Positions 9,926-38,347 of a stretch of DNA of 64,000 nt are shown here, one piece after another. Each line of letters begins with the position of its first letter. Position 1 is the first letter of the stretch. The position numbers and the translations under genes were made by a program. The notes under the pieces are model-generated. The model did no database searches. It was not told the DNA's origin and saw nothing but the letters and a program-made list of their open reading frames with translations. The DNA is from Halodesulfurarchaeum sp. (GTDB taxonomy: Archaea; Halobacteriota; Halobacteria; Halobacteriales; Halobacteriaceae), in assembly GCA_034520565.1 (NCBI GenBank), contig JAXHNL010000002.1, positions 1,376,001 through 1,440,000 of the forward strand, read 5' to 3'.

Positions 9926-11074
9926 CTACTTCTGTCCCGAACGACTACCCTCGTGGGTTCGGAGTATCCGGTCCAGGTACCGTTCGTATCGGTCGTATAG
10001 CTTTTCCCAAGTAAATTCGTCTTCGATTGCTGCCCGGCCGTTGTCGCCGAGATGGCGTCGTTTCGCCTCATTCGAAGCTAAGTGATCTAGCGTTTCGGCC
10101 AGATTTTCCGGCTGTCCCGGATCAATTAGCCGCCCCGTCTCACCATCACTGACGATTTCTGGAATTCCGCCGACCCGTGTCGCAACGACTGCCTTCCCCG
10201 CCGCCTGTGCTTCGAGAACCACTCGTGGCAATCCCTCCGTGTAAGAAGGGAGCACGAACACGTCGAATTGATGGTAAAGGGCAGGGACTTGTTCGTAAGG
10301 GACTGCCCCAAGAAATAACGCCCTCCCAGCGAACTCCTTTTTCAGATTGTCACGTTCGGGGCCGTCCCCGGCGATCACGACAACCGGATCGCTATCTGTC
10401 CTCTCAAGTGCCGAAGCAAGATCTGTGAGCCCTTTATATGGATATAGCCCACCAATATAGCCCAGAACGAATTTATTTTTGACAAATGGTTTTATTTGCC
10501 TTCTATAATACTCATCAAGATTTACGGGGGCACCTTCGGGATGAAATTGATTGGTGTTGACTGCGTTTTTAATATTGAAAATTCGTTCTTTGGGCACGCC
10601 AATTTCTCCGAGATCATTTGCAATCGATTCGGAAACGGCGAAATAGCCATCATGACCGAAACGTAAGCGACGAATGATTGATTCGGTCTCAATTCGATTT
10701 AGAAAATTGGATTTGTTGACACTTTTTGGACTGGACCCTACCTGAATGACGTGGGGGATGTTCAAAAGCCGGGCTACGGTTTTACCAGGTACATACGTCT
10801 TTCGAGTCTTTGATATTATTACATTAGCCTCAATACTCTTTGCGAGGTTTCTCGCCTGTAATACAGTTCGCAAGGGATCGATAGCGACACGAAACTGGGG
10901 TTTCAGGGAATGATGAAACGGGAAGTCGTCGTCAGTTGTATTCCAATCGAGAAGGTGAATATCATGGCCGCGATTACGTAGTCCTTTCACGACGTTGCGT
11001 ACGTGAATTTGCCCTCCTCGCACCATTGAATCAGAAAACGAAATTGATTCTTCGGTGATATAGAGGGCTTTCAT
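9926..11074 (-). CDS. Glycosyltransferase family 4
   Basis: GGLYPYKG and EGLPRVVLEAQAAG motifs. Confidence 0.9.
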   Translation of the reverse strand: MKALYITEESISFSDSMVRGGQIHVRNVVKGLRNRGHDIHLLDWNTTDDDFPFHHSLKPQFRVAIDPLRTVLQARNLAKSIEANVIISKTRKTYVPGKTVARLLNIPHVIQVGSSPKSVNKSNFLNRIETESIIRRLRFGHDGYFAVSESIANDLGEIGVPKERIFNIKNAVNTNQFHPEGAPVNLDEYYRRQIKPFVKNKFVLGYIGGLYPYKGLTDLASALERTDSDPVVVIAGDGPERDNLKKEFAGRALFLGAVPYEQVPALYHQFDVFVLPSYTEGLPRVVLEAQAAGKAVVATRVGGIPEIVSDGETGRLIDPGQPENLAETLDHLASNEAKRRHLGDNGRAAIEDEFTWEKLYDRYERYLDRILRTHEGSRSGQK

Positions 11075-13822: not shown

Positions 13823-16231
13823 ATGACAAGCAAAAACGATAAACTCCGCGGCCTGTTCCTGGCTGCGCTGATGGTACTCAGCATCACTGTTGGGTCCATT
13901 GCGTTTGCAGGGACAGCTGCTGCGGCTGGAGAACCTGTGGTCACCAGTTCCATCGAGTTTGATGGTACTGATATGACCAGCCAATTTAATGGAAGTAATG
14001 GTGATGTAAGTACAATTGAAGTCGCCTTCGACCAGGCAGTCCGAATGGACGATGGGACAAATATTACGAGCGGAGACTTCGAGGTATTCGTCAACGATAC
14101 CAACGTGACCACCGGCTATACACTGATTGGGAATGGTAACACCAGTGGAGTCGAAGGTCAGGTTGTGTTAACCTCAAGCACTGCACTGGCACCAAATGAC
14201 GACCTCGTTCTTAACTTTACTGACAAAATAGAGGACGTCGACGGTAATAACGTCTCGTTTACCAACGAGTCGATTACCGTAACTGGTGCAACGATTTCTG
14301 AAGCTGGAGTTCAGAGCTATACTGAATACGCAGGTACAGATGTTGCATATGTGACGAACAGTACTGGGCTTAACACAGACTTCGAGATCAGCACCGAAGA
14401 TGAACTGATCCTTGACGGTAGCACCGGTGCGGGTAGTCAGGTGTACCTCTTCGATAGTGCGGACCGTGAGACGAGTGTCAAGCACTGGTTCAACAATACC
14501 GCTAACGACATTTCGCTCACCCTCCGTAACCTGAACTTGGACGCCACGCTGGCGGACGACACGGCTGACGGGATTTACGTCGACGCTGACGACAACGCTG
14601 ACGACACAGTCGTCGATGTCTCGGCCGTCCGTGGAAACGAAGACGTAGAAGTGCAAGTCTTGGACAGCGACGGAGATGACTTCGGCGACGCCCAGGCATT
14701 CACCCTGGACGGCAGCGGTGAAGTCGAGGCGAACCTTGGAGACGTCTTCACCCAGGACGACACTGGTACGTACACGCTCGAAGTGATGGACGTGACGACG
14801 GGTGTTACTACAGAAACGGACGAATTCGACGTGGAGGAACTCCCGGACATTGAAGCGGGGTTCGCGCAGACATCCTACACGGACGAGCGCGGTGACATCA
14901 TGAACATCACGGTCGACATCTCGGAGGGTGACTCCGCGACCGTGTTCGTTGGTGACGACGACGCGAACTACCTCTACGAAGTCGACATCACGGACGACGA
15001 TGAAGACGGAGAGGTCGTGCTGAGCTGGAACACGTACAAACACAGTTCAGGAACTGCTACCGCTGCAACGGATAGTTTCTCGGCACCATACGGTGAGGAC
15101 GACAACGAAGTCACTGGTGTCACGGAGCACCAGGGTGTCAGCGACGATAAAGTCCTGGCAGCCATCTCGTACGAGCTGAACGTGACGGCGAACGATGAGG
15201 AGCTTGGCGTCGCACAGGCGACCCTCTCGGAACGTTCGACTGACGCGGTCAACACGTGGATCGCGCCGAACGGCGACGTCACTGAAGTCGCGGATATCAG
15301 CGAGTACGCAACTGACCTCTCCGAGACGTCCCTCGGTGAAGACGTGATCGTGGAGGTCGAGGCCTCTGGCTTCGAAGGCTTCATGGTGGACCACGACTCG
15401 GAGGCCTATGAGTCGTCGGACCTCAACATGTCCAGTGACGGGCTGTACATGAACATCACGGAGACGAACGTTGCGAGCAACGCCGACCCGAAAACAGCAA
15501 ACGTGTCGAACACGACGCTGCTGCTGGACCAGGACAACAACAAGTTCTACGTCCTGATTGATACGAGCGACTCGGACAAGTTCGACTTCTCCGCTGACGA
15601 AGACTACGAAGCGAAACTGACGCTGAACCAGGACTCGCCGTACGTGGAGTCCACGACGACGAGTTCGGTCCAGTCCGAGGAATGGACGACAACCTTCTCG
15701 CTGGTTGAGGAGGACTATACGTTCGACAACCTGAACGACACGGACATGCTGAACGTTGAGGCAACAGAAGACGTGACGGTTTCGGGTGAGACCTCGATCG
15801 CGCCCAAGCAGAACGTCACAGTGCGCGTGCGCTCGCCAGGTAACTACCTGATGAGCGACGAGAAGGTGACTGTGCAGGACGACGGCACCTTCAGCACGAG
15901 CTTCGACTTTAGCGACAAGGCCGACACCGAATTCACGGTTTCACTTCAGAGCGTGGACGGCACGGACGCTGACGGCTACGTGATGGAGGCTGCTCCGGAG
16001 GAGACGACGGAGGAGACCACCGAAGAGACCACCGAGGAAACGACCGAAGAGACAACCGAAGAGACGACTGAGGAGACGACCGAGGAGCCCGTCGAAACTA
16101 CCGAGGAGCCGGTAGAGACGACGGAGGAACCGGTTGAGACGACGGAGACCCAGACGCCCGGCTTCACGATGGGCCTGGGCCTGATCGCGCTGCTCGGTGC
16201 GGCGCTCCTGGCGCTCCGCCGCAAGAACTAA
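13823..16231 (+). CDS. csg: Cell-surface (S-layer) glycoprotein with Sec signal, Thr-rich linker and PGF-CTERM
   Basis: Signal peptide MTSKNDKLRGLFLAALMV; acidic; about 18 N-x-S/T sequons; C-terminal TPGF-hydrophobic helix-RRKN archaeosortase signal. Confidence 0.9.
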   Translation: MTSKNDKLRGLFLAALMVLSITVGSIAFAGTAAAAGEPVVTSSIEFDGTDMTSQFNGSNGDVSTIEVAFDQAVRMDDGTNITSGDFEVFVNDTNVTTGYTLIGNGNTSGVEGQVVLTSSTALAPNDDLVLNFTDKIEDVDGNNVSFTNESITVTGATISEAGVQSYTEYAGTDVAYVTNSTGLNTDFEISTEDELILDGSTGAGSQVYLFDSADRETSVKHWFNNTANDISLTLRNLNLDATLADDTADGIYVDADDNADDTVVDVSAVRGNEDVEVQVLDSDGDDFGDAQAFTLDGSGEVEANLGDVFTQDDTGTYTLEVMDVTTGVTTETDEFDVEELPDIEAGFAQTSYTDERGDIMNITVDISEGDSATVFVGDDDANYLYEVDITDDDEDGEVVLSWNTYKHSSGTATAATDSFSAPYGEDDNEVTGVTEHQGVSDDKVLAAISYELNVTANDEELGVAQATLSERSTDAVNTWIAPNGDVTEVADISEYATDLSETSLGEDVIVEVEASGFEGFMVDHDSEAYESSDLNMSSDGLYMNITETNVASNADPKTANVSNTTLLLDQDNNKFYVLIDTSDSDKFDFSADEDYEAKLTLNQDSPYVESTTTSSVQSEEWTTTFSLVEEDYTFDNLNDTDMLNVEATEDVTVSGETSIAPKQNVTVRVRSPGNYLMSDEKVTVQDDGTFSTSFDFSDKADTEFTVSLQSVDGTDADGYVMEAAPEETTEETTEETTEETTEETTEETTEETTEEPVETTEEPVETTEEPVETTETQTPGFTMGLGLIALLGAALLALRRKN
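15998..16147 (+). repeat. Coding tandem repeat (EETT)x7 + (EEPVETT)x3, likely O-glycosylated linker
   Basis: Visible in the translation; synonymous codons vary between units. Confidence 0.9.
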
Positions 16232-16250
16232 CGACGACTAAGTAGCGAGT

Positions 16251-16317
16251 AACGGGCGCAACCCGTTTTCGATCCCAACCCTGGGATCGATACCCCTACC
16301 CATTTTCATTTTTTCAC
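16251..16317 (+). terminator. csg 3' UTR: two hairpins followed by T tracts
   Basis: aacggg-cgcaa-cccgtt; tcgatccca-accc-tgggatcga; ttttcattttttc. Confidence 0.7.
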
Positions 16318-16428
16318 GATCCAAGAGCGACGGCTTCTGCCAGCCGACCTTCTCGACCTATTGTGACTGGACAATCTCGCCATAGTTGCCCAGGTAATGC
16401 CGCGTAAACTTAGGATGGGGAAATTTGG

Positions 16429-16542
16429 TGGGTGGGAATCCAAAAGGGGCCGACCGGTCGCGTGCGCTTCTGCGGGCCCTATTTCGAGCGGAGCGAGAAA
16501 TATCTCGCAGAGCGTGCGCGAGCGGGAGGGGGCTTTCGGAGG
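16429..16542 (+). repeat. Hairpin-mosaic intergenic element, copy 1
   Basis: Left end tgggtgggaatccaaaaggg identical to 21787-21806; right end gcgagcgggagggggctttcg identical to 34471-34491. Confidence 0.75.
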
Positions 16543-16624
16543 ACGAGTCACTCACTAATCCAATCCAAATTATTCCACCACCAAAACCGGAACCATCAAC
16601 TTCCCACCTCACCCCCAAACAACC

Positions 16625-17615
16625 ATGACCGTACTCGTCACCGGCGGCGCCGGCTTCATCGGCTCCAACCTCTCGGAAGCTCTTCTAAAGAGAAACCACG
16701 ACGTCGTAGTCCTCGACAACCTCGACCCCTACTACGACCTCGAGATCAAACACCACAACATCGACCAGTGCCGAAACACGGCCCCAAACAACTACACCTT
16801 CGTCGAGGGCTCAATAACAAACGAATCGTTAGTCAACGAGATCTTCACCAACCACGACATAGACTTTGTCTACCACGAAGCAGCCAGAGCCGGCGTCAGA
16901 ACCTCCGTCAACCAACCCAAATTCTACGAAAAAAACAACGTCCAGGGCCTCTTAACACTCCTCGAAGCCGCAAAAGACAACAACGTCACCCGCTTCGTCA
17001 ACGCCTCTTCGTCATCAGTCTACGGCCGACCGGACTACCTCCCCTACGACGAGGACCACCCGAACTACCCCAAGAGCCCCTACGCAGTCACCAAACTCGC
17101 CGCCGAACACTACTGCAAGGTCTACACCGACGACCTCCACGACCTCCCCACGGTCAGCCTCCGGTACTTCACCGTCTACGGCCCCCGCATGCGCCCCAAC
17201 ATGGCCATCTCGAACTTCGTCTCACGCGCCCTCAACGACGAACCGCCGATCATCTACGGCGACGGCGAACAGACACGCGATTTCACCTACATCGACGACA
17301 TCGTCGACGCGAACCGCTCGCCTCCTGCGATACCGACACCGCAGACGGACGAGCGTACTCAACGTCGGCTCCACGGACACCATCACCATCAACGAACTCG
17401 CAACGTACGTCATCAGCGAAACGAACACCGACCTCGAACCGATCCACGAGGACCCGAAGGACGCAGACGCGAGACACACCCACGCCGACGTCTCGAAGGC
17501 CCGAGACCTACTCGACTACGATCCCCAGACCTCGATCAAAGACGGCGTCTCGCGTTTCATCGACTGGTACGAAGACAACCGGGACTGGTACGAACCGCTC
17601 GTCCTGAACGCGTAA
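16625..17615 (+). CDS. NDP-sugar epimerase (GalE/UDP-GlcA epimerase-like), frame disrupted at about 17320-17355
   Basis: VTGGAGFIGS, YAVTK and RYFTVYGP motifs; removing four single bases restores NRSLLDTDTADGEVLNVGST...WYEPLVLNA-stop at 17613-17615. Confidence 0.85.
17517..17602 (+). repeat. 86-bp direct repeat (epimerase 3' end), live copy; partner at 22688-22773
   Basis: 81 of 86 nt identical by eye. Confidence 0.92.
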
Positions 17616-17807
17616 TCGATTCGGTTTGCACAATCGATTCCGCTCGTCAGTCGTTCACACCGACAATCGAAACCCCTGGAAAACAGGCCCCGCTCCGAAT
17701 TCCCGAACGTGACTCGCCTCGGGGTCAAGTGGTTCGAGAATCGAATTCTCCCGTCACGAAGCGAAGCCGAAGGCTTCGCGAGGGCTGCGAACGCGTTGCG
17801 TTCGCCC

Positions 17808-18265
17808 GATCACGAAACTCTCCGATTTTCGAACGACCGCATTGACCGGGCCACAAGACAGCCACTCCGAGGGCGAAACGCGCCCGGAGACGAGTGAAAC
17901 GAATGCGTCTTGAAACCGTGACGGGTCACTGAGACCCGAAATCCCATGGTGGGATTCCACGGCGTCGTCGGGCGACGCCCGACTGCCTGAGACCTTCGGA
18001 CCATCTCTGTTCATGCCGTGGAAGAGGTCAATGCCGGGTTTCAGGTCGTTGAGACGGTCAATGCAGGCATCGAGTTAAACTCCCCAAACCCCAATCAGGC
18101 GTCGGAGTCAGTTGCTTCCTCGAGGAGATCGCACATTCGATCGAAGTGCTGGCTGATTTGCTCTGGCATCGACTCGAACGCGTCATCGCTCACAGGTTTC
18201 CCTCCGTTCACTTCGTGCCATTTTTCAAACCTCTTGATGAAACGTTCGACGTTCTCACGTGAATC
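17808..18265 (+). repeat. About 370-bp direct repeat, copy 1 (carries about 88 extra nt); partner at 21929-22300
   Basis: Near-identical blocks such as ggccacaagacagccactccgagggcgaaacgcg and tttttcaaacctcttgatgaaacgttcgacgttctc. Confidence 0.93.
18095..18262 (-). pseudogene. 3' half of a small hypothetical gene; 5' part missing, vapC abuts it
   Basis: RENVERFIKRFEKWHEVNGG...EEATDSDA-stop; matches 22128-22438. Confidence 0.65.
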
Positions 18266-18269
18266 GCTT

Positions 18270-18656
18270 CTATTTCAATTCTCGCGGGTCAACATGTTCG
18301 ACCTCGCTGATCTCGGGAAACAGGGTATCCGTGGACACGATCGGCTCGCCACGTGCGTACGCGGCGCCGAGGTGAATCGAATCGAACACACCCACTCGGT
18401 CGTATTTCTCTCGGAGCGTTCCCGCCGCCTCGATGTCCTCGCGTGTGAGTGCGACGAGGACAACCCCTTCGTTTTCGATCGACGCGTACCCGGTGGCAAG
18501 ATCCCTTCGGTCCCAGTCGGATTCCATGACGTATTGGATCTCGATTGCGGTCGCGACGGATGTGATCGGTTCGGGTATCGCGTCGATATCGACGTCGGAG
18601 GAAAGCCAATCGTCTTCCTTGAGCCGGGCGAGGATCGTATCGGTGTCGAGGTACAT
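18270..18656 (-). CDS. vapC: PIN-domain toxin (VapC-like)
   Basis: MYLDTD, FDSIH and IVSTD PIN motifs; directly follows an RHH gene. Confidence 0.88.
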   Translation of the reverse strand: MYLDTDTILARLKEDDWLSSDVDIDAIPEPITSVATAIEIQYVMESDWDRRDLATGYASIENEGVVLVALTREDIEAAGTLREKYDRVGVFDSIHLGAAYARGEPIVSTDTLFPEISEVEHVDPRELK

Positions 18657-18890
18657 TCAGGCCTGGCGCTTGCGTTCTAACCGCTCCCGAATATCGCGCT
18701 CGGCGACGGCGTCGGTCACTTCGTGGAGGCGAATGCGATCTCGCTCCTCCCGAACGACGAGCCGAGCACCGTACCGGAGTGCCTCGGATCGCGAGCTAAA
18801 CACGCCCTCCTCGACGAGTTCGTCGAGTTCCTCGACGACCCCCACCGGTAGCGATACCGGGATCGGTTTTCTGGATGAATCGGTACTCAT
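18657..18890 (-). CDS. Ribbon-helix-helix (CopG-like) antitoxin
   Basis: VSLPVGVVEELDELVEEGVFSSRSEALR pattern. Confidence 0.85.
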   Translation of the reverse strand: MSTDSSRKPIPVSLPVGVVEELDELVEEGVFSSRSEALRYGARLVVREERDRIRLHEVTDAVAERDIRERLERKRQA

Positions 18891-18956
18891 GCCTCACTGT
18901 TTGTTATACAATGGTATAAATTATCGGGATAACACGAGAGTTTTCTATTGGGGGAG

Positions 18957-19097
18957 TACGAGCCCCCGCTCACACGGTTCGCGGGGACGCCGCAAAGACT
19001 AACGTCTTTGCGAGATCCCGCTCGCTTCGCTCGCGGGGACGCCGTAAGGACTAACGTCCTTACGAGCCCCCGCTCGCTTCGCTCGCGGGAACGCCGT
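18957..19097. repeat. Tandem array of about 52-nt units with alternating hairpins (REP/BIME-like)
   Basis: cccgc-N-gcggg three times, alternating with gcaaagac-taac-gtctttgc and gtaaggac-taac-gtccttac. Confidence 0.85.
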
Positions 19098-19192
19098 CGC
19101 AGCTAAGTAGGTAAAAGCGACTGACCGGCGTTACCGGTCACTTCGATTCCGTAACCCTGGTATCGATACCCCTGCCAACGTTTCATTTTCAC
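19092..19192 (+). pseudogene. Relic 3' end (RRRS-stop) and 3' UTR of a second S-layer/PGF-CTERM gene
   Basis: cgc cgt cgc agc taa; 19153-19173 matches 16277-16297 at 20/21 nt; homologous hairpins and T tract. Confidence 0.75.
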
Positions 19193-19199
19193 CTAATTC

Positions 19200-20661
19200 G
19201 AGGCGGAGGCCCCACCCTCAAGGAGCGCCGGGCTTCCGGCCCCGGCGGAAGCACAAGCGGAGGTGAGGAGCTGGGGACGGAACGCGCGAGCGCCACGGTA
19301 CTGACCAGCCACCAGACTGTTGCCTGCTAACTCCCAATTATTAAGTAACTATGTATAGATATGTGAAAATACAGTGGAGTACCGTCGTACTGCCGTTATC
19401 AAGCTCGACACGCCCGAAGGCGCGGATACACACCTTCGAGAGACTGTCGAGCAATTCAAATACTGTGCCAACACCGCAAGCGAATGGTGCTGGCACGGTG
19501 ACGACGGCTACCACGTCACCTCGAAAGCCAAGGCTGAACGCGCCCTGTACGACCAGTTACGCGAGGAGACGGAGTTGACCGCGAATCTTGTCCAGAAAGG
19601 GATTCGCCAAGCCGTCGAAGCCGTCAAAAGCGGCGTCGAACGGCTCAAGAACGACCAAGATACGGCCCGTCCAACATTCTCGGCAGATACCGCTATCTAC
19701 GACAAGCGAAGCGCCACGTTCCACCGCGACCACGTTTCGCTGTCAACAGTTGACGGACGAATCGAGTGTGACTATATCCTCCCTGACGACGCTGACGTAC
19801 CACCGACGAAGTACGTCACAGACGAGGACTACGAGTTTCGGCGGGCGACTCTCCATCGACGTGACGGCGACTGGTTTCTCCATGCGTCGATGCTCAAAGA
19901 GGACGACACCGACACCACAACCGGGCACAGAACAGTCCTCGGTGTGGACCTCGGTGTGAACCAACTCGCGGTCGCTTCGACCGGACGATTCTGGTCGGCA
20001 GACGAGTTCAACCACTGGAAGCGAGAGTACGAGAAGCGGCGTGGCGACCTCCAACAGTGCGGAACGAGAGCTGCACACGACGCGATAGCAGGTGTTGAAC
20101 GCAAAGAGGACGGACGCTTCGAGATATTCCTGCATCGTGTCGCCAACGAAATCGTCGCTGAAGCCGTCGAACACGACTGTTCGCATATCGTGTTCGAGGA
20201 CCTGACCGACATTCGTGAGAACGTCCCAGAAGCGTCGTGGCACCATCTGTGGGCGTTCCGCCGGCTCTACGAGTACGTCGAATACAAAGCCAGAGAGCAG
20301 GGCGTCGAAGCCGTCCAAGTAGACCCACGGAACACGTCAAAGCGGTGTTCGACCTGTGGGTTTACCCACGACGACAACCGCCACGGCGAGGATTTCGAGT
20401 GTCAGAAGTGTGGCTACCAGAACCACGCTGACTACAACGCTTCCAAGAACATCGGCTTGCAGTATCTCCGGCGTCGGCAAAACGCAGATGCCGGAGGCGC
20501 ACCCGTAGACGTGCGCTTGAATCGCGGGACGTTGAACGTGAGTGGAGAGTACGACCTTCCCGCCTCATCCGAGGCGTAGAACGGGAGTCCACGCGAAAGC
20601 CCTACCCTCAACGAGCGAGTGGGTCCATAGACCCCGAGCGAAGTAGGGCAGGCTGGTGCAC
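19200..20661 (+). mobile_element. IS200/IS605-family, IS1341-type (tnpB only) element; ends approximate
   Basis: Related subterminal motifs gccccaccctcaaggagcg (left) and gccctaccctcaacgagcg...gtagggc (right) flank tnpB. Confidence 0.75.
19374..20579 (+). CDS. tnpB: RNA-guided endonuclease TnpB
   Basis: RuvC motifs GVDLG, VFEDL and HADYNA; zinc finger CSTC..CQKC. Confidence 0.93.
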   Translation: MEYRRTAVIKLDTPEGADTHLRETVEQFKYCANTASEWCWHGDDGYHVTSKAKAERALYDQLREETELTANLVQKGIRQAVEAVKSGVERLKNDQDTARPTFSADTAIYDKRSATFHRDHVSLSTVDGRIECDYILPDDADVPPTKYVTDEDYEFRRATLHRRDGDWFLHASMLKEDDTDTTTGHRTVLGVDLGVNQLAVASTGRFWSADEFNHWKREYEKRRGDLQQCGTRAAHDAIAGVERKEDGRFEIFLHRVANEIVAEAVEHDCSHIVFEDLTDIRENVPEASWHHLWAFRRLYEYVEYKAREQGVEAVQVDPRNTSKRCSTCGFTHDDNRHGEDFECQKCGYQNHADYNASKNIGLQYLRRRQNADAGGAPVDVRLNRGTLNVSGEYDLPASSEA

Positions 20662-20967
20662 CGACAGTGGCGGCTCCGTTTGGACACTCACCTTTGGTTT
20701 TCGGACTCCGACGCCGCTCTCTTGTGACTCCGAAACTATCGTAAGCCCAATTCATGGATCGGTACTAGAACCGCTTCGGCAACTCTCAGTGCCGGTTCGG
20801 GCCCCAGTCTTCGTATTCACCCCAAAAACTCTCCCCGGCAATGGCCACCGGCCACTGCGCTCTGCATCCGCTCCGTCGTCTCGGTTACCGTGTTCGAAAA
20901 TATCTATCGCGTTCTGCACGGATGGGCGTTACGGTCGTTTTCTCATTGCTGGGAGATGAATCACCGC

Positions 20968-21247
20968 TCAGTCATCGGCAGTGTACGCCCCGGATCGATG
21001 TTCGATATCGTAGATGACGAGTATCGACCGTTCCCGGTCAGCAGCTGCGCCGAGTCGGTACTCCCCGACCCGAATTTTCCCGTGTGGCAGTCCCGTGAGC
21101 GGCTCGACGTATTCGTGCGGGGCCCGCCACTCCTCAGCGATGATTTGCTCGAGTTTCGCGACGATTCGTTCCTGCGTGACTTCATCGAGATCATCGAACG
21201 CATCTGCGGCGGGACCGAAACTCCCAGCTCCAATCACGACTCGTCAT
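20968..21247 (-). pseudogene. relE: RelE/ParE-family toxin, apparent frameshift after about codon 13
   Basis: ATG at 21247 gives MTSRDWSWEFRSR, out of frame with AADAFDDLDEVTQERI...KIRVGEYRL...IEHRSGAY. Confidence 0.7.
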
Positions 21248-21524
21248 CCATCATTGCGAGGACTTCGTCACGAGAGACGGCCTCACTCTCCCCGTTTCGC
21301 ATGGCGTATTCCTCGGCCGCGATGCTCGCCAGCATTGCCCGCGACGCGCCGGGATGAGCCGTCGCGTCCCTGATCGCGTGTCGAAGAAACTCGCTTCTGG
21401 ACGTGTATCCCTCCTCCTTCCAGACGGCGTCGATCTCCTCGAGTTGGCGCTCGGTGACGCGAACGTTGATCGTCGTCGTCTCGGGGTCTTCGATGGGATC
21501 GTTATTCGTATCGCTTTTCGACAT
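21234..21524 (-). CDS. Ribbon-helix-helix antitoxin
   Basis: TINVRVTERQLEEID...GYTSRSEFLRHAIRD pattern. Confidence 0.85.
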   Translation of the reverse strand: MSKSDTNNDPIEDPETTTINVRVTERQLEEIDAVWKEEGYTSRSEFLRHAIRDATAHPGASRAMLASIAAEEYAMRNGESEAVSRDEVLAMMDDES

Positions 21525-21786
21525 ACGGACGTATTACAGACGCGGTGTATAAATATCTGGCTTCCCCGTAACAACAAACGTGTGAGGACCGCATCGAGTC
21601 TCAAGTTGCCAGGTATTCGAGTCCAACAACAGCATCGAGACGATATTCGACTGCTCCGGGAATGCGACGAATTCAGCGGTTTTCCGTCGAAGAACTCCCG
21701 ATGGAACTCGAGACTGGTCGGATTAACGAGGATCGCCCCGTTCCAGGAGGTGTTCAAATAAGCGGCCCCAGCCTGAACAATGGTGT

Positions 21787-22072
21787 TGGGTGGGAATCCA
21801 AAAGGGTTCCCGCGAGGTCCGCAGGACCGAGGGGGAGCAAGCGAGAGCCGAAGGCTCTCGCCCAGGCCGACCGGTCGACCCGGTGAGACGAAGTAAGCAC
21901 CGTCGCCCGAGAGAGCAACCTCTCTCGGGATCACGAAAATTGTCCGATTTTCGAACGACCTCATTGGCCGGGCCACAAGACAGCCACTCCGAGGGCGAAA
22001 CGCGTCCGGAGACGAGTGAAACGAATGCGTCTTGAAACCGTGACGGGTCACTGAGTCCCGAAATCCCATGGT
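21787..22072 (+). repeat. Hairpin-mosaic intergenic element, copy 2
   Basis: Left end shared with 16429; 21801-21862 identical to 34210-34271 (62 nt); stacked short hairpins. Confidence 0.8.
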
Positions 22073-22300
22073 TTCAGGTCGTTGAGAAAGTCAATGCAGG
22101 CATCGAGTTAAACTCCTCAAACCCCAATCAGGCGTCGGAGTCAGTTGCTTCCTCGAGGATATCGCACATTCGATCGAAGTGCTGGCTGATGCGCTCTGGC
22201 ATCGACTCGAACGCGTCATCGCTCACAGGTTGCTCCCTCCGTTCACTTCGTGTCATTTTTCAAACCTCTTGATGAAACGTTCGACGTTCTCGCGTAAATC
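21929..22300 (+). repeat. About 370-bp direct repeat, copy 2
   Basis: Aligns with 17808-18265. Confidence 0.93.
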
Positions 22301-22438
22301 TTCTTCGGCGGCATCGAACCCTTCGTTCGCCGGAATTGGCGGCGTGACTTTCTGGGTTCGTATTTTCTGACCCTCGCGGTAGACATCTCGATGAACGCTA
22401 TTCGGTGATGTCGTGGCCACCTGGCGTGACTCGGTCAT
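22128..22438 (-). pseudogene. Small hypothetical gene with TGG>TGA stop and a frameshift
   Basis: MTESRQ...RFIKRFEK-stop; the paralogous copy at 18095-18262 reads through as W. Confidence 0.65.
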
Positions 22439-22687
22439 GATCGTAGCGAACGATTACGCCAGTCGCCCTCCAGCCAGTACTCCAGCTGTACCATGAACTT
22501 CGTCACAGTGCCCCGATGTGTCGAAAAGGCCGAACGAAGCTGAACACGGTCGGCCAGCCGATCTGGAGGGGGTGTGACCTCGTAGTCTTTCATTCATCGA
22601 GCCTCTTTGAGTCGTCGAGTTGGTTCCGAATATGCCGTCTGGTACTGTAATTTTTCCGAAGTCAATACTATCCATGAGCCATTGAGT

Positions 22688-22773
22688 TACGACCCCCAGA
22701 CCTCGATCAAAGACGGCGTCTCCCGTTTCATCGACTGGTATCAGGACAACCGGGACTGGTACGAACCGCTCGT
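22688..22773 (+). pseudogene. Relic 3' end of the NDP-sugar epimerase
   Basis: YDPQTSIKDGVSRFIDWYQDNRDWYEPLV; 94% identical to 17517-17602. Confidence 0.9.
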
Positions 22774-22791
22774 GAGGGGAGCGGACGGAAA

Positions 22792-23280
22792 TCACGCGGG
22801 CCAGTGAGGAAGTGAGGGCATCCCGTGCTCCCAGGAAATCGCTGCCACCGCCGAGGGGAGTTGCTGCAGTCGGTCATCGAGAACGGCGAGTGGATGTCCA
22901 TCGAGAAACCTCACGCGATGCCGATCGACCGGCATATTTTCGTGATTGAGCTGGATATGGCAGGCCCCAAGATCCGGATGATCAGCGTCCCGATGGAAGC
23001 CGAGCATCAGGTTCCGGTTCGGTTCGACCCAGTTGATGCGATAGTATTCATCGTCCCCGCCGGCGGGGTACCAGAAGCGAATCTCCAGTCGTGCGGTTTC
23101 TACGGTGGTTGTATCACCCAGGAACGTGGGCGGATCAACAGCAGCGATGACCTCCCGGGGTCGGCGTCGAGACGGACGATAGCGCACGTCCGCACAACCC
23201 GCCTGATTCGTTAGTCGATCGTGAACGTCGCGGAGAAGTGTCCGCTGCGTATAGCGGTCGCGACCGGCGAGAAAGATCAT
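22792..23280 (-). CDS. Hypothetical protein, partner of the upstream HTH gene
   Basis: 162-aa ORF starting 7 nt after the HTH gene stop; His-containing motif GFHRDADHPDLGACHIQ. Confidence 0.7.
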   Translation of the reverse strand: MIFLAGRDRYTQRTLLRDVHDRLTNQAGCADVRYRPSRRRPREVIAAVDPPTFLGDTTTVETARLEIRFWYPAGGDDEYYRINWVEPNRNLMLGFHRDADHPDLGACHIQLNHENMPVDRHRVRFLDGHPLAVLDDRLQQLPSAVAAISWEHGMPSLPHWPA

Positions 23281-23287
23281 CGCCAGA

Positions 23288-23839
23288 TTAGCTCCTGGCG
23301 CGTTCGGCCACGTCGGTCAGTTGTTCGCGAGCGGCTTCGACGTCGGAGTACAGTTCCAGTGCATGCTTGATGAGGTGTCGATCCTGCTCGTTCTCGCGCC
23401 AGAACGCGATGACGCCGCGGCGTTCCCGGAGTGCATCACTCGATAGGTCGCCGTCGGCGAGGGACTGTTCGAACTCCGCCCACGTCTCGACGTCGTACGT
23501 TGCCTGCCACGCCTCGATTTCCTCGGTGATCGCGGTCAAATCACTTTGCAACTCCTCGCGCGTGTTCTCCTCGATGAGAGTACGAATTTCCTCGAAGAGC
23601 AGCCGCGTGTAGTCCGGCTGGTAGCGCGTCATCTCGCCGGTCTCGACACGACGCAGCTGGCCTTGGTCGACGAGCGACTGGAGTTCCTCGTTGGTCGTGC
23701 TCCAGGCGGCCTCGGCCTGCTCGCTAATCCAGTTGACTGACCGCGGTTCACGAAGCGTCTCGGCGACTGCCCGAATACGGTCGCGTGCACTCATCGACTC
23801 GGTCCACGACTGGACCCCATCTCGCGAGGACTCTGCCAT
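23288..23839 (-). CDS. Winged-HTH + coiled-coil protein (haloarchaeal DUF7342-like, from recall)
   Basis: PRSVNWISEQAEAAWSTTNEELQSLVDQG HTH-like segment; ATG at 23839. Confidence 0.7.
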   Translation of the reverse strand: MAESSRDGVQSWTESMSARDRIRAVAETLREPRSVNWISEQAEAAWSTTNEELQSLVDQGQLRRVETGEMTRYQPDYTRLLFEEIRTLIEENTREELQSDLTAITEEIEAWQATYDVETWAEFEQSLADGDLSSDALRERRGVIAFWRENEQDRHLIKHALELYSDVEAAREQLTDVAERARS

Positions 23840-24095
23840 GTTTTGGACCTCTTGAGAGTGTTGACGCTGTACTCCCATATATGTTTGTATCTTTTCGCAT
23901 AATCAAGAGTCATTTACGAGCGAGGGGGATCGGACACTGCAAAGCGAAGCTGAAAGCAACGCTGGCAACCGAGACAAAACCGTATACTGACGATCTCGTT
24001 TTGCAGTGACGTTCCATTCTCACCACTACCCAAAGGACGATGTTGGAACACCCTTTGCCGGACGTTTTAACCCTTGACCTCCCGAATACTCGTTC

Positions 24096-24341
24096 ATGAG
24101 TGTCTCACGGGAGATCCACCTCACGGAGGGCGATGATTGGTGGACGGCGGTCGATGTGGACACTGGCGTGGCAAGCCAGGGCAAAACACCGAACGAAGCC
24201 GTCGAAAACCTCGAGGAGGCGGTCGCGCTCCACGATGGCGAAATCGGCCACGCGCCGACGGACGAGGAGCTCCGGGAACTCGGCGTCGACCCGGAGAACG
24301 CTCGAACGCAGGGTGAGGAATTGCCCGACGTCCTGCAGTGA
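24096..24341 (+). CDS. hicB: HicB-family antitoxin
   Basis: WWTAVDVDTGVASQGKTPNEAVENLEEA; TTTTAA box about 30 nt upstream. Confidence 0.88.
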   Translation: MSVSREIHLTEGDDWWTAVDVDTGVASQGKTPNEAVENLEEAVALHDGEIGHAPTDEELRELGVDPENARTQGEELPDVLQ

Positions 24342-24345
24342 GTGA

Positions 24346-24429
24346 CTGGCCCGACGAGTCTTCTCCGGCGAAGAAGTGTATCGAGTACTGGTAACAGCGG
24401 GCCATCCACTCAGGCGTCTCGCGGTTTAA
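24346..24429 (+). pseudogene. hicA: HicA toxin N-terminal stub
   Basis: (CTG)ARRVFSGEEVYRVLV then unrelated sequence; resembles the N-terminus of 26217-26471. Confidence 0.65.
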
Positions 24430-24471
24430 TCCACCACAAGACTGAAGCCAAATCCGTAAAAGATTGAAAAT

Positions 24472-24660
24472 ATGACACAGGCGACGAAACGGATCCCGGT
24501 TCGCGAAGAGACCTTCGAGGAACTCGGCAGGTTCAAGGGAGCTGGCGAAACCTGGGACGACGTGGTTACCGACCTCATCGAGGCCCGCCAACGGGAGAAT
24601 CGCCGTCAACTCATAGAACGCACCGAGGACGACGAGTACGTCCCGCTTGACGACGTTTGA
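24472..24660 (+). CDS. Small RHH-like antitoxin
   Basis: TKRIPVREETFEELGRFKGAGETWDDVV pattern. Confidence 0.8.
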   Translation: MTQATKRIPVREETFEELGRFKGAGETWDDVVTDLIEARQRENRRQLIERTEDDEYVPLDDV

Positions 24661-24955
24661 ATGGGGCTATCAGGTTCTCCGTGGTGAACAACCGAGAGCG
24701 TTTCTTGGGGATGTCGAGGAGAAAACCGAACGGATCGTGACGGACCACCTCCGTTCGCTCGAAGACGAACCGTTCCCTCGCCCTGGATCCGGTCGCGGGG
24801 ATCGCGAACGATTGCCTGTCGATGGTGACGAGCTGTATCGCTTGCACATCTCTCGGACCTACACCAACCTCTACACCATCGACGCGTCCGCACACGAAGT
24901 CCGGGTGAGAGAAATCGTCCCGATCGACGAAGCTCACAAGCGCTACGGCTATTGA
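24661..24955 (+). pseudogene. relE: RelE/ParE-family toxin; an extra G after the ATG puts the start out of frame
   Basis: ATGGGGCTAT where ATGGGCTAT (MGYQVL) is expected; body LYRLHISRTYT...IDEAHKRYG; a TTG at 24647 could rescue translation. Confidence 0.7.
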
Positions 24956-25014
24956 CATTCGCTCCGCAGCGTCGTCGATTCCGGGGAAGTCACCGATCTC
25001 CGCCGGCAATTACA

Positions 25015-25051
25015 TTTATTACGTATCGTAACGTACTACATCGTAACGATG
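25015..25051 (+). promoter_or_regulatory. TA promoter with a repeated operator-like motif
   Basis: TTTATT box, then atcgtaacg twice immediately before a leaderless ATG. Confidence 0.5.
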
Positions 25052-25342
25052 AAGACGGTCACCACGCGGATTCCGGAGGACGACGAGGCGGCACTCGCCG
25101 AACTGGAGGCGGAGATGAGTGTCGATCGCTCGACGGTCCTCCGCCGACTCATTCGGGACGGGCTCGATGACTGGCGAACCGAGCGGGCACTCGACAAACT
25201 TCGCGAGCACGCCATTACGATTCGAAAAGCGGCTACTCTCGCAGATGTCACGTACGTCGAGATGCTCACCCTCGCCGCCGAGGAGGGGATCGACGTGGGC
25301 TACACGACGGACGACCTCGAACGCGACCTCGATCGAATATAA
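25049..25342 (+). CDS. UPF0175-family antitoxin
   Basis: RHH-like N-terminus plus ITIRKAATLADV HTH. Confidence 0.82.
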   Translation: MKTVTTRIPEDDEAALAELEAEMSVDRSTVLRRLIRDGLDDWRTERALDKLREHAITIRKAATLADVTYVEMLTLAAEEGIDVGYTTDDLERDLDRI

Positions 25343-25830
25343 TGGTCGTCCTCGACGCGTCAGCGCTCATCCCGCTTGCCTGGGTCGGGCAACTCGATCT
25401 CATCTCACGGACGTTCGACGATCTTCGGACGACTGAGACGGTTCGAGCGGAGGTCCTTACTGATGGCAAGCGTGGCACGGCGGCACTCGAGGAGTTCCTG
25501 TCGGATGTGACCGTCGCGGAGTCCCCTGCCCGGGCCGAGACGGTCTCGTCTCTGGAGGGAATCGCGGTCGCGGACGCGTCGGTGATCCTTTTGGCGGAGA
25601 CCGCCGATGAACGGCTCCTCGCCAATGACAAGGGGTTGATCGAGGTCGCACGGAGCCACGGCATCGAGTGCTGGTGGGTGACGACGTTGTTGCTCAGCTG
25701 TACCAAACACGGGCACCTGACCGCCGAAGAGGCGACCACTGTCCTCTATGACCTCGTGAACGAGGGGATGAATCTCCATCCGAAAGTATACACGAGAGTC
25801 CAGAAGAAACTCCGCGAAATGGCGAGGTAA
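25342..25830 (+). CDS. PIN-domain toxin (DUF3368-like)
   Basis: MVVLDASALI, ADASVI and LLAND motifs; TAATG coupling. Confidence 0.82.
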   Translation: MVVLDASALIPLAWVGQLDLISRTFDDLRTTETVRAEVLTDGKRGTAALEEFLSDVTVAESPARAETVSSLEGIAVADASVILLAETADERLLANDKGLIEVARSHGIECWWVTTLLLSCTKHGHLTAEEATTVLYDLVNEGMNLHPKVYTRVQKKLREMAR

Positions 25831-25958
25831 TCGACCTTCGTGCTCCTTTGGACGGGCGAACACGGAAACGGCACCCCGATTACGTTCCTTACTTGTCAAA
25901 GTGCGACCAGTCTTCCCATGCAATATATGTACGTCCCCTCCGTATCGTATTCCACACG

Positions 25959-26204
25959 ATGAGTATTGGCGTCGAGCCGACCATCACCCTCACTGATGAG
26001 GGTGAGTGGTGGATCGCGAGAGACACCGAAACAGGCGTTGTCAGCCAGGGCCGGACGAGGACGTCTGCCCTCGACAACCTGGATGAGGCACTCGCCGGAT
26101 ATCATGGTGAGGGCGATTCGCCAAGCGAAGAGGACCTCCGGGAGAGCGGAATCGATCCCGAGCGAAACGTTTCTGGGAAATCGCTCCCGGGACCACTCGA
26201 ATAA
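25959..26204 (+). CDS. hicB: HicB-family antitoxin
   Basis: WWIARDTETGVVSQGRTRTSALDNLDEA. Confidence 0.88.
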   Translation: MSIGVEPTITLTDEGEWWIARDTETGVVSQGRTRTSALDNLDEALAGYHGEGDSPSEEDLRESGIDPERNVSGKSLPGPLE

Positions 26205-26216
26205 TCCACTCATCGA

Positions 26217-26471
26217 ATGGGTATTCGACGGTATTCTGGCGAAGAGGTTCGCAAAGTGCTGGTCAATCATGGCCCCTTCTACGTGGACCGTGTCTGAGGT
26301 GATCATTTCATTCTTCGTTGGGAGCCTCCTGATGGTCACGATTCCGCTGCAAGGACCGTGCCAGTTCCAGACCACGATGAATTAGCCACCGGAACACTCC
26401 GGTCGATCGGTGAGCAAGCTGGAATGAAAGACTTCAACAAATTTCTCGACTGGCTGGATCGGAATTGCTGA
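26217..26471 (+). pseudogene. hicA: HicA toxin with an in-frame TGA at 26295-26297
   Basis: MGIRRYSGEEVRKVLVNHG...DRV*GDHF...TVPVPDHDELATGTLRSI...WLDRNC-stop (84 codons). Confidence 0.85.
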
Positions 26472-26603
26472 GACGTTCTCTGATTTTCCAGGAGCCCTTG
26501 GCTCCGGGGAACGTCGTTTGGCTTGGCGGACTGGGTGTAGTCCCCTCCCCAATCCACTCCGTCCCAGAACGGCTTTGTCCGCGCCGTGTTTACCACCACC
26601 CAG

Positions 26604-27902
26604 ATGGATCTCAGCATCGTCGGTTCCGGCTACGTCGGAACCACCATCGCGGGCTGTTTCGCCGACCTCGGCCACGACGTCGTCAACGTCGACATCGACG
26701 AAACGGTCGTCGAGTCGATCAACGCCGGCACCTCCCCGATTCACGAACCCGGCCTCGACGAACTGATCGCTGAGAACGCCGGAGCAAACCTCCGGGCAAC
26801 CACGGACTACGATGTCATCCCCGACACCGAGGTCACCTTTCTCGCCCTGCCCACCCCATCGAACCCGGACGGCAGCATCGACACGAGTTACATCGAGAGC
26901 GCCGCCGAATCCATCGGCGAAGCCATCGTAAAGAGTGAAAAAACCCACCTGATCGTCGTCAAGAGCACCGTCATCCCCACAACGACCGAAGAAATCATCA
27001 CCCCGATCCTCGAGCAATCCTCGGGTAAAACCGCCGGCGAGGACTTCCACGTCGCGATGAACCCGGAGTTCCTCCGCGAGGGCACGGCCGTCGAGGACTT
27101 CCTCGAACCCCACAAGATCGTCTTCGGCGCCGAAAATCAGCCCGCATACGACACCCTCCGCGAGGTCTACCGACCACTGACTGAAGCCGCGACGGCCGAC
27201 CCCACCATTGTTGAGACCGCCACCCGCGAGGCCGAGATGATCAAGTACGCCAACAACGCGTTCCTCGCGGCGAAGGTCAGCCTCATCAACGACATCGGGA
27301 ACATCTGCAAGGAGTTCGGCGTCGACGCCTACGAGGTCGCCGACGCCATCGGCCTCGACGACCGCATCAGCGAAAAGTTCCTCCGCAGCGGGGTAGGTTT
27401 CGGCGGCTCGTGCTTTCCAAAGGACGTCAAAGCCATCATCGCCGCCGCGAAAGCACAGGGCTACGAACCCCCGCTCCTCGAGGCCGCAATTGAGGTCAAC
27501 GACTTGCAGCCAGAGCGCATGCTCGCACTGCTGGACGACCACGTCGACGTCGCCGGCAAACGCGTCGCCGTCCTCGGCCTGGCGTTCAAACCCGGCACGG
27601 ACGACGTCCGCAACTCCCGGGCGATCGACGTCATCGAGGGACTCCAGGACCGAAACGCAGAGGTCGTCGCCTACGACCCGGTCGCGACCGAGAACATGCG
27701 CGAGTACTTCCCGGACCTCGCGTACGCCGACTCCGCCGCCGACGCCCTTCAGGGCGCAAACGCGGCCATGATCCTCACCGACTGGGACGAGTTTGCCGCT
27801 CTCGACGAGGAGTTCGACGCGATGGACTCACACCTCGTGATCGACGGCCGCAGAGTCATCGAACCCCGCGAGGGGATGACCTACGAAGGCCTGACGTGGT
27901 GA
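26604..27902 (+). CDS. aglM: UDP-glucose 6-dehydrogenase
   Basis: [25 protein letters not shown] and FKPGTDDVR motifs. Confidence 0.93.
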
Positions 27903-28062
27903 TTGAATAGGGTACGTCGATCGTTCTCGGTTATACGCTCCCCGAAAATCGGAACCCCAAGCCGGGCTCCGCGATACTGATGCCACGTACCCAAATAGCT
28001 CAAGTTCCGTACATCTACGGGACTTCGATTGTGTCACACGGCTTGCCGCCTCAAACTCAAGT

Positions 28063-28308
28063 TCAGTTGGCAGAGGCGAGATCTTCGTCGAGTTCTGCCT
28101 CGGTGTAGTGGCGGGGGATTTCCCGCTCCCCAAGGAGGTCGTGGAACTCTCGCTTCGATAGTTCCGCCAACGCTCGTGCTTTGCCGAATGAAAGTGCCCC
28201 TGTGGCGTACAGGGAGACGGCCAATTCCCGTTTGAGGGCCCGAGGACGGTCTGCTTCGGGGAATTGTAACGCGTCGTATACCTCTTCGTCGATCTCGATC
28301 GTGGCCAT
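28063..28308 (-). CDS. UPF0175-family antitoxin, orphan
   Basis: LSFGKARALAELSKREFHDLLGER; no toxin ORF downstream. Confidence 0.82.
   Translation of the reverse strand: MATIEIDEEVYDALQFPEADRPRALKRELAVSLYATGALSFGKARALAELSKREFHDLLGEREIPRHYTEAELDEDLASAN

Positions 28309-36874: not shown

Positions 36875-38347
<1,473 letters not shown>

Follow-up and report, generated by a model that had tools for sequence, protein, structure and literature searches.

Gene-end relics stacked behind an S-layer-type glycoprotein gene in a haloarchaeal glycosylation island

Downstream of an S-layer-type glycoprotein gene (csg) inside the agl N-glycosylation cluster of a Halodesulfurarchaeum assembly (G000), we find a stack of displaced gene ends interspersed with toxin-antitoxin (TA) genes and small repeats. 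Our preferred reading, to which we give a probability of about 0.58, is that these gene-end relics of the agl island, themselves real, arose through two or more displacement events in succession, integrase-free and driven by recombination along a route that we infer. The window, meaning the whole 64-kb stretch of DNA analysed, has a GC content of 40-53% over 11-14 kb of this region, against about 62% for the genome, and the region carries cell-surface and glycosylation genes. Its features, in window coordinates, are as follows.

13823..16231, plus strand: live csg, S-layer-type glycoprotein of 802 aa, ending RRKN-stop
16232..16317, plus strand: conserved csg 3′ UTR with two hairpins, a pyrimidine box and a T tract
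16429..16538, plus strand: element B, a complete small hairpin repeat with short inverted ends; fold z -5.6; one of nine copies in the assembly
16625..17615, plus strand: NAD-dependent sugar epimerase (Pfam PF01370)
17808..18265, no strand: repeat X copy 1, a hairpin-rich non-coding part and a DUF7718 gene tail (minus strand); 95% identical to 21929-22300
18270..18890, minus strand: VapBC-type pair, RHH antitoxin 18657-18890 (PF01402) and PIN toxin 18270-18656 (PF01850)
18959..19091, plus strand: hairpin units at the old csg stop, with RRKD-stop at 18988-19002 and 19040-19054 and a partial unit at 18959-18987
19092..19192, plus strand: displaced csg end, RRRS-stop and a UTR of another type
19193..20650, plus strand: IS1341-type tnpB-only element, tnpB at 19374-20579 (NF040570 above cut-off)
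20968..21524, minus strand: RHH antitoxin (21234-21524) and a putatively RelE-like partner (20968-21237)
21787..21877, plus strand: element B′, with the 20-nt left end of B, an extra hairpin insert and a further 13 letters of the B body, after which it is truncated
21929..22438, no strand: repeat X copy 2 (21929-22300), with a longer remnant of DUF7718 on the minus strand (22253-22438, PF24839)
22688..22773, plus strand: orphan epimerase 3′ tail, 94% identical to 17517-17602
22792..23878, minus strand: DUF7342 gene (PF24033) and partner, the first of further TA-like genes before aglM
26604..27902, plus strand: aglM (NF041297 and NF041394 above cut-off)
33213-34130, minus strand: aglG, part of the surrounding agl N-glycosylation cluster

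The live csg product has a haloarchaeal signal peptide, a BGTF domain, a Thr/Glu spacer and a PGF-CTERM end, along with 18 N-glycosylation sequons. Among NCBIfam models, TIGR04207, NF045517 and TIGR04126 score above their cut-offs, and NF041335 reaches 294 bits, under its cut-off of 1100. One close copy of csg was found in the assembly. Relatives G001, G010 and G052 use a csg locus adjoining rpoH, a place that coincides with an assembly gap here, and the window csg may be a second copy, not a replacement, with another csg in that gap; the contigs of the congeners G007 and G002 stop before reaching that locus. The 3′ UTR of the live gene has a fold z of -3.2, and 5 of its 15 pairs show both-sided changes among the seven sequences compared; an Rfam scan of 16000-23000, this UTR included, returned zero matches.

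Judged from its sequence, the csg relic is the 3′ end of another csg allele lying downstream of the live gene. An earlier note on this DNA had placed it at 19092-19192; it is indeed a csg end, but one whose true span is 18988-19192, with a partial unit from 18959, and the so-called 52-nt repeats are RRKD-stop twice, ahead of RRRS-stop. Over its full length, this longer span aligns with the 3′ end of the live csg in the congener G007, a gene of a different S-layer family from the live csg of the window, at a score of 154 (300 random windows gave a maximum of 40 and a mean of 26). Relatives whose full csg ends in a relic-type tail, as the same note had anticipated, are thus at hand: G007 for the left part, and G001 and G010 for the UTR, at 84% and 82%, compared with 77% to the live UTR of the window itself. 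Over 16217-16317 and 19092-19192, 75 of 106 columns of a global alignment are identical, and the local score of 59 compares with a best of 30 elsewhere among 1244 tile-strand scores covering the whole assembly. With up to three mismatches allowed, a 21-nt UTR core is confined to these two sites within the assembly. A csg-UTR model run on 56 family genomes gave 17 matches in 12 genomes (7 of the 17 had been training rows), all at S-layer-type gene ends or orphans: 14 at PGF-CTERM gene ends and three orphans, in G000, G007 and G049. These counts rule out a dispersed repeat unrelated to csg. Viral contigs searched for the first hairpin of the relic UTR yielded zero exact matches. The relic holds the conserved anchor end and UTR, not the variable domain, and its shortness rules it out as a silent cassette from which the variable region could be reused. 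A microhomology of 6 nt at 19092 was dropped as a deletion junction because the 52-nt units themselves belong to the csg end, and none was seen at the true left junction near 18955.

The recurrence of three landmarks in the same order, the csg end (A), element B and the epimerase end (C), is real, as seen from alignment, the 94% epimerase tail and the exact B left end. These landmarks had been taken as the complete set, which overlooked the larger repeat X: at 95% identity, 17808-17950 pairs with 21929-22072 and 18037-18265 with 22070-22300, copy 2 being without about 86 nt of copy 1. From its end motifs, the non-coding part of X may be IS605/PATE-like. The live order is A-B-C-X and the relic order A′-B′-X′-C′. 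X and the epimerase tail thus come in opposite orders in the two blocks, which calls for a minimum of two events, one of them for the epimerase tail alone. The suggestion that a new csg allele was added ahead of a decayed older one therefore survives in that the csg end of another allele does lie downstream, and fails as a single three-landmark fossil. A whole glycosylation allele may have arrived with csg, as had been proposed, but between the repeats there are only csg, one epimerase and TA genes.

We consider it unlikely that one event added a csg-element-epimerase allele ahead of the old one, leaving the three relics as its remains, with X copied or moved later. In its favour, A, B and C recur in order, the 20-letter left end is exact only at 16429 and 21787 (other B copies are two to three letters off) with the B body resuming for 13 letters past the insert of B′, and G052 carries a tandem pair of full csg genes that are 72% identical and followed by TA-like genes. 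It does not account for X after C but X′ before C′, for unequal divergence (71-77% identity for the csg tail versus 94% for the epimerase tail and 95% for X), or for a lone epimerase tail in the agl cluster of G001, where no csg is nearby.

The epimerase tail is a close copy: 17517-17602 and 22688-22773 differ at five positions, four of them third codon positions. The live epimerase is frameshifted near 17313-17353 in the assembly, with each half matching an intact homologue at 64-67%; since a contig of run X1 is without letters 17351 and 17353, the frameshift is probably a sequencing or assembly error. In relatives, tails begin at reference residues 319 (G001), 314 (G075), ~315 (G120), 303 (G236) and 243 (G180), compared with ~320-324 in G000. 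Five short tails begin within about 20 codons, a clustering that a tail-only query favours and that could also reflect a preferred site. One att site in the epimerase tail was rejected, as the starts are scattered and no fixed crossover core is seen across genomes.

Tail-leaving is not peculiar to the csg locus. Similar tails appear at other G000 genes (5 of 8 pairs viewed by eye, drawn from 74 local repeats) and also in relatives, where epimerase and aglF-like genes have them. Orphan csg tails occur in G007 and G049 as well, and orphan lengths are 0, 4 and at least ~70 codons; the hairpin units sit at one site while these lengths differ. A 3′ bias of relics is not established: in a head/mid/tail test over 1516 G000 genes, whose matches are partly paralogue debris, we counted 6 tail-downstream, 3 head-downstream, 2 head-upstream, 2 mid and 1 tail-upstream. 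Between G001 and G010, flanks of 93-97% identity surround a csg body of ~2.2 kb that is unalignable as DNA (38% at the protein level), with breakpoints within the signal-peptide and C-terminal coding regions, a scar-free swap.

The earlier observation that no integrase, recombinase or TnpA is visible in the window was borne out: Pfam detected no integrase, resolvase or TnpA in 84 ORF translations (46 + 38, picked from 345 ORFs), and two TnpB genes are present. No Y1 transposase or TnpA was found in the assembly, which is 80.7% complete, and tyrosine recombinases occur outside the window only, the nearest 16 kb past it. A matrix built from five 27-bp cassette sites (33-44 bits) gave 21 rows above 16 bits elsewhere in the assembly and no site in the window, where the best score was 8.6 bits. 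Integrative elements with att sites in the 3′ ends of protein genes exist, and like them the window has a displaced 3′ fragment downstream of cargo. However, a tyrosine-integrase element of this kind would be expected to carry its integrase in or beside the element, and the window has none; there is also no fixed epimerase core across genomes, and the repeats are 71-95% alike.

The csg stop codons themselves carry an unusual structure. Each RRKD-stop is followed by its own inverted copy and then by a second hairpin, such that a unit consists of a direct and an inverted copy of the end of the host gene and the loop of the first hairpin provides an in-frame stop. Direct-inverted-direct units with covarying arms are found at csg stops in G000, G007 and G049, spanning two genera, and a generalised pattern, derived from these very csg cases, matched four places among 401 genomes, every one a csg stop. 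Two metagenome matches shared one unrelated context and were taken as chance. For all four csg units, the trailer of tRNA-Arg(GCG) scored best of 44 tRNA trailers; its lead is clear for the two units of the window (54 vs 25 and 42 vs 28) and marginal for those of G007 and G049 (26 vs 24 and 33 vs 29, respectively). The second hairpin is common to the units and this trailer, clearly so in the two window units, and in G000 the start of the unit and the end of tRNA-Arg(GCG) agree in 8-10 of 12 letters. No tRNA genes were called in the 64 kb, so the csg units do not stand behind one; unlike the hairpin units behind haloarchaeal tRNA genes, their target is the last codons of a protein gene. The csg units are probably members of the tRNA-trailer hairpin family. 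The units at csg stops are new: we found no description of them, of orphan csg tails or of the units behind haloarchaeal tRNA genes in the mostly open-access literature searched.

These units raise a second alternative, in which the csg stop would be a secondary attachment site of the system that builds tRNA-trailing hairpin units, and a trans-acting recombinase would insert units, at times with cargo, duplicating the csg end. We regard this as distinctly unlikely. The covarying units at csg stops, their likeness to the tRNA-Arg(GCG) trailer and end, a similar hairpin ahead of the orphan UTR of G007 and an integrase-free TA islet at tRNA-Thr (C2:401029), whose pair matches 20968..21524 at 70% as DNA, would all fit. 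It leaves the epimerase tail and X unexplained, though; the live csg end carries no unit, units may be merely inherited with an allele, the search pattern was built from the cases it recovers, and no enzyme is known. A stronger version, in which the last csg codons mimic the tRNA-Arg(GCG) 3′ end and are a true target of the tRNA-unit machinery, seems quite unlikely to us. Units would then insert at Arg-Arg codons and restore the basic C-terminus and stop, which would preserve the PGF-CTERM anchor; integrase-free displacement of whole csg alleles with TA cargo would be seeded by this same recombination of folded single strands.

Mobile elements sit at or near the junctions (the IS1341 element, B, B′ and X). 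Element B is a low-copy dispersed family: 7 of its 9 copies lie within a 46-kb archaellin-agl island, the hairpin insert of B′ is 91-93% identical to three other copies, and 5 of 35 other genomes have matches, at scattered sites. In G001 the single match directly follows the orphan epimerase tail. Outside G000 and G001, there is no support for B as a cassette site specific to the agl island. The IS1341 element, which falls in the 90% cluster of ISNph21, inserted immediately after the T tract of the relic; a contig with different letters before 19189 marks its left end, and its right end is approximate and apparently clipped. Because it sits behind the relic's terminator, it postdates that UTR. 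The product of 20968-21237 had zero Pfam or NCBIfam matches. In our view it is very unlikely that elements of the IS605 family or small hairpin elements drove the process through breaks, adjacent deletions or co-mobilisation, using TnpA from another source, even though indels often begin or end with an element (PMC3119063): TnpA was not found in the 80.7%-complete assembly, the IS is younger than the relic UTR, the B copies of G056, G067 and G019 are far from epimerase matches, and the epimerase relic of G075 showed no small hairpin repeat in self-comparison.

A strain-chimeric misassembly joining alleles of two strains in one contig is highly improbable, since, although the assembly is incomplete with indel errors and 18923-19189 is unbridged among the contig matches listed, the copies are decayed fragments instead of a pair of intact alleles, contigs of run X1 (which may be the source sample) cover both blocks with 0-1 differences at like depth (~3-7) and bridge the epimerase-tail junctions (one covers 22262-22977 with one difference, and the X copy 2 form is a separate contig), and the same relic types occur in the complete or near-complete G001, G049 and G075.

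Under successive recombination-driven displacement, DNA from a relative would pair through homology on the left, in the csg promoter and signal peptide or in the epimerase body, and the right side would be joined without long homology, or the DNA would enter as a circle via one crossover. The resident 3′ end would thereby be pushed downstream of the new allele and its cargo. Both microhomology end joining and homologous recombination are in use in Haloferax volcanii (PMC2700283). The epimerase tail at 22688-22773 would have been displaced first. Later, a csg-UTR-B-epimerase-X-VapBC block would have entered ahead of an older csg′-UTR′-RelBE-like-B′-(epimerase lost)-X′, and last the IS1341 element would have landed behind the old terminator. 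The TA pairs may persist because such pairs are hard to lose. What we infer here are the sequence of events, the relative age of the copies, the route of recombination and virus evasion as the selective driver.

The stack works like the displacement arrays of bacterial rhs loci, where C-termini are displaced (PMC2935791), and Vibrio type VI secretion (T6SS) clusters, where effectors are displaced sequentially (PMC5361080); homology-facilitated illegitimate recombination or circular intermediates have been proposed there (PMC2935791, PMC5361080). In both, 3′ fragments of variable length are stacked downstream of an intact gene without an integrase, and a displaced end matches an attached end elsewhere (here G007, G001 and G010). 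It is nevertheless not such an array, because the displaced relic is a conserved anchor end with its UTR and not a variable functional domain. Those arrays vary a C-terminal tip and carry immunity genes, whereas in this archaeon the S-layer body varies, the relic is conserved and TA pairs make up the cargo.

Swapping of S-layer and glycan islands is already known in haloarchaea. Replacement islands include GI1 of Haloquadratum, with deletion-coupled insertions (PMC3119063, PMC4535781), divSEG18/GI-3 of Halobacterium (PMC7002104) and the homeocassettes of Halorubrum (PMC11078007); S-layer and agl genes are exchanged between relatives at fixed places by recombination, with virus evasion proposed (PMC3119063, PMC4535781, PMC7002104, PMC11078007). 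Several genes listed for divSEG18 recur in the window, namely tpiA, hisC, agl genes and those for a CDP-alcohol phosphatidyltransferase, GTP cyclohydrolase III and a Y-family polymerase, and the clean csg swap between G001 and G010 resembles these islands in placing different versions at one position. Unlike islands swapped without duplicates (PMC4535781 notes an absence of gene duplications in clade I of its GI1), the window keeps old 3′ ends and has csg inside the agl cluster. PMC3119063 describes integrative elements with att sites in tRNA gene 3′ ends and calls the mechanism of deletion-coupled insertion not understood. Its IS1341-type elements, PATEs and SMRs in Haloquadratum resemble ours as tnpB-only IS and transposase-free hairpin repeats clustering in variable regions; B and X are likened to PATEs and SMRs by description, not sequence, and may be among the elements of that paper.

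Without a mechanistic link, the locus would be a well-preserved scar in a known type of variable island. The orphan tails preserve one junction of the event, however, so the route is testable and the former S-layer type of the lineage is recorded. The units at csg stops provide a non-tRNA target for a hairpin repeat family, argue for DNA-level targeting over a role in tRNA processing and are usable as an assay substrate. If the tRNA-mimic reading were true, they would be the first protein-coding target of the hairpin-unit family and part of a dedicated archaeal route of surface switching.

An earlier note had read the region behind the S-layer glycoprotein gene (csg) as a single fossil copy of a csg, hairpin element and epimerase block. 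The observation was largely right, with corrections, and the interpretation is partly supported. The features concerned, in window coordinates, are the following.

13823-16231 (+), live csg gene
16217-16317, live csg end with its 3′ UTR (16232-16317: two hairpins, pyrimidine box, T tract)
16429-16538, hairpin element (element B)
17517-17602, 3′ end of the live epimerase gene
17808-18265, repeat X, copy 1
18988-19192, csg relic, with the same UTR design at 19107-19192
21787 onwards, cut-off copy of element B
21929-22300, repeat X, copy 2
22688-22773, orphan epimerase tail
24000-29700, 38435-39069, 42673-44020 and 48259-49141, dense toxin-antitoxin (TA)-like genes across the agl cluster (DUF7387, VapB-like, UPF0175, PIN, AbiEi/AbiEii)
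36926-38275, second tnpB

The repeat of the csg tail is genuine (75 of 106 columns identical; local score 59, versus at most 30 anywhere else in the assembly), and so is that of the epimerase tail (94% identity). Nor is the csg relic dispersed, its UTR core occurring at two places only within the assembly; its start had been placed too late, at 19092, as the 52-nt repeats ahead of that position belong to it. The left end of element B matches exactly at 16429 and 21787 only, but is part of a dispersed family with nine copies. Although the three landmarks recur, the previously overlooked repeat X (95% identity) is out of order with the epimerase relic, lying 3′ of the live epimerase but 5′ of the relic. 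That a single event accounts for all relics is unlikely: the recurring landmarks speak for it, the position of repeat X against it.

The copies of the csg end, element B and repeat X would be collinear if the old block had lost its epimerase between the cut-off element and repeat X; the tail at 22688 would then be an older layer. The most likely course is therefore that recombination displaced gene ends at least twice. It would have relied on homology on one flank and illegitimate joining on the other, or on a single crossover with a circle; IS insertion and deletion would have come later. The same one-sided or circle model is proposed for rhs tips (PMC2935791) and Vibrio T6SS arrays (PMC5361080). 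The stack works like known 3′-end displacement, located inside a known type of replacement island; it does not qualify as an integrase element, a clean replacement island or an rhs-type array. Such variable islands are described in Haloquadratum, Halobacterium and Halorubrum (PMC3119063, PMC4535781, PMC7002104, PMC11078007), and H. volcanii possesses both repair routes (PMC2700283). Searches of the literature turned up no account of csg orphan tails or of csg stop codons carrying hairpin units, and the available portion of PMC3733652 does not cover archaeal hairpin repeats of this sort.

These units open the csg relic: from 18988 it reads RRKD-stop, an inverted copy of those codons and a second hairpin, the whole set is repeated, and RRRS-stop and the UTR follow. 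The stretch 18988-19192 can be aligned with the end of the live csg gene in a congener, G007 (score 154 versus a null maximum of 40). The csg orphan of another relative, G049, has the same design, with a unit at the Arg-Arg codons giving RRN-stop and the RRRS-stop of its live allele displaced behind the unit. Units resembling tRNA trailers give a new basic C-terminus and stop at csg Arg-Arg codons near 2650-2770 of locus L092 (G007, contig C96) and near 10300-10520 of locus L095 (G049). A generalised unit pattern occurs at four places in 401 genomes, all at csg stops (backwards control: eight scattered places); because it was built from the same cases, this survey shows only the absence of further copies in that form. 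In the species-genome collection a stricter pattern has a single exact match, which lies at a csg end carrying G007's sequence. Of the assembly's 44 tRNAs, 16 have within 170 nt an inverted copy of their own end that is 9 nt or longer, versus 36 of 1515 protein-gene ends. Each of the four csg units finds its best match among the 44 trailers in that of tRNA-Arg(GCG); the margin is clear for the window's two units and narrow for those of G007 and G049. The csg units are alike in design to those behind tRNA genes but sit at protein-gene ends instead; that the machinery behind the tRNA units uses the csg end site-specifically is rather improbable.

Displaced epimerase tails recur in relatives. A search with the 38-aa tail produced 201 matches across 166 of 240 genomes, 160 of the 240 having been picked beforehand for strong matches; 14 matches have open frames shorter than 270 aa, and 12 of these loci were examined. 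In the congener G001 the tail stands alone, behind a low-GC glycan cassette and ahead of element B, and an 83% copy of the inner-to-3′ part of its aglF-like gene lies behind TA cargo. The order at this locus (L014) is orphan tail (17041-17300), the genome's only element B match and the aglF-like gene with its partial copy (17912-19643). In G075 an 88% tail copy lies 1.3 kb behind the gene, separated from it by two cargo genes; short tails also stand in G120 and G236, and a longer one in G180; the epimerase of G074 carries an internal deletion, and that of G087 is 5′-truncated. The short frames of G123 and G251 reflect contig edges, those of G245 and G248 frameshifts and that of G013 a paralogue. 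At L060:6604-17823, G120 has a multi-layer stack like that in the window: two complete epimerase genes (82% identity) separated by 5.5 kb, a third copy reduced to the tail, and partly repeated aglB- and aglF-like genes. Tail starts spread over reference aa 243-324, so the tails share no single att core.

In line with the earlier note, a scan of 84 ORF translations from the window revealed no integrase, resolvase or TnpA; a matrix scan of the window found no 27-bp cassette sites, and Y1 transposase has no match in the whole assembly. Four tyrosine-recombinase loci lie in the assembly outside the window. Rearrangement driven by mobile elements is quite improbable. Elsewhere in the assembly, eight other repeat pairs were inspected by eye, and five of them are gene or tRNA ends that have been displaced and now lie 2-5 kb downstream of cargo (contig C2: 221237/226357, 823283/827553, 1676165/1672254, 525724/530334, 402340/400227). 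Two 27-bp cassette sites lie within the 221237/226357 pair and one within 525724/530334. A formal test gave no demonstrable 3′ bias of gene fragments within this genome. Two tandem genes at C2:1362297-1364398, which we take to be archaellin-like from their GQVGIGTLIVFIAM motif, share 90-93% identity at either end but differ in the middle, and adjoin four element B copies and TA-like genes. An intergenic array of roughly 75-bp units covers 1.1 kb (C2:482950-484077).

The assembly is haloarchaeal (1.86 Mb, two contigs, 80.7% complete), and the window covers C2:1376001-1440000. The csg protein of G001 is named from Halodesulfurarchaeum formicicum; long shared segments are about 68-87% identical in DNA, so the assembly represents another species. 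The csg and relic stretch sits within the agl N-glycosylation cluster. Upstream of it are glycan genes of low GC and an ABC transporter, downstream of it aglM and aglG, with numerous TA-like genes in between. A strain-chimeric assembly is highly improbable: both blocks are covered by contigs of sequencing run X1 (possibly the source sample) at a depth of about 3-7 with 0-1 differences, the epimerase relic is bridged, and copy 2 of repeat X is present as a separate contig. None of the X1 contigs listed bridges 18923-19189. The live epimerase is frameshifted (17313-17353), probably an assembly error. An RND-type transporter gene, otherwise intact, is split by an indel-type break (C2:1358949-1359581), and the two breaks suggest assembly errors. 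Codons ending in G are scarce in the 5′ part of the epimerase (16625-17320), at 3-17% per block versus 14-29% near the 3′ end, and this part is possibly a mosaic or foreign allele. The csg site next to rpoH, used in G001 and the relatives G010 and G052, is unassembled here, contig C1 stopping inside the polymerase operon.

The csg 3′ UTR forms a conserved double hairpin with compensatory changes across seven sequences, whose relatedness makes the shuffle control overstate the structure. It has no match in Rfam and is a candidate mRNA stability or termination element. A model of it matches 17 loci (L071-L087, seven being training rows) in 12 of 56 family genomes, at S-layer-type gene ends; on inspection, PGF-CTERM gene ends account for 14 (three of them on the opposite strand and one at the edge of a contig) and orphans for three, in this assembly, G007 and G049. 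Relatives do carry full csg genes with the relic-type UTR: the relic UTR is closer to those of G001 (84%) and G010 (82%) than to its own genome's live UTR (77%). Between G001 and G010 csg is swapped without a scar, the flanks being 93-97% identical; some 2.2 kb of the csg body cannot be aligned at the DNA level. Congener csg proteins share 23-38% identity where alignable, and that of G007 falls, over cut-off, in another NCBIfam family (TIGR04216). G052 carries two full csg genes in tandem, with 72% identity as proteins and 88% as DNA across their final 1.9 kb; TA-like genes come next (L093:3922-9587). In this group, then, exchange of S-layer alleles takes place between conserved ends, and orphan ends arise repeatedly as a by-product.
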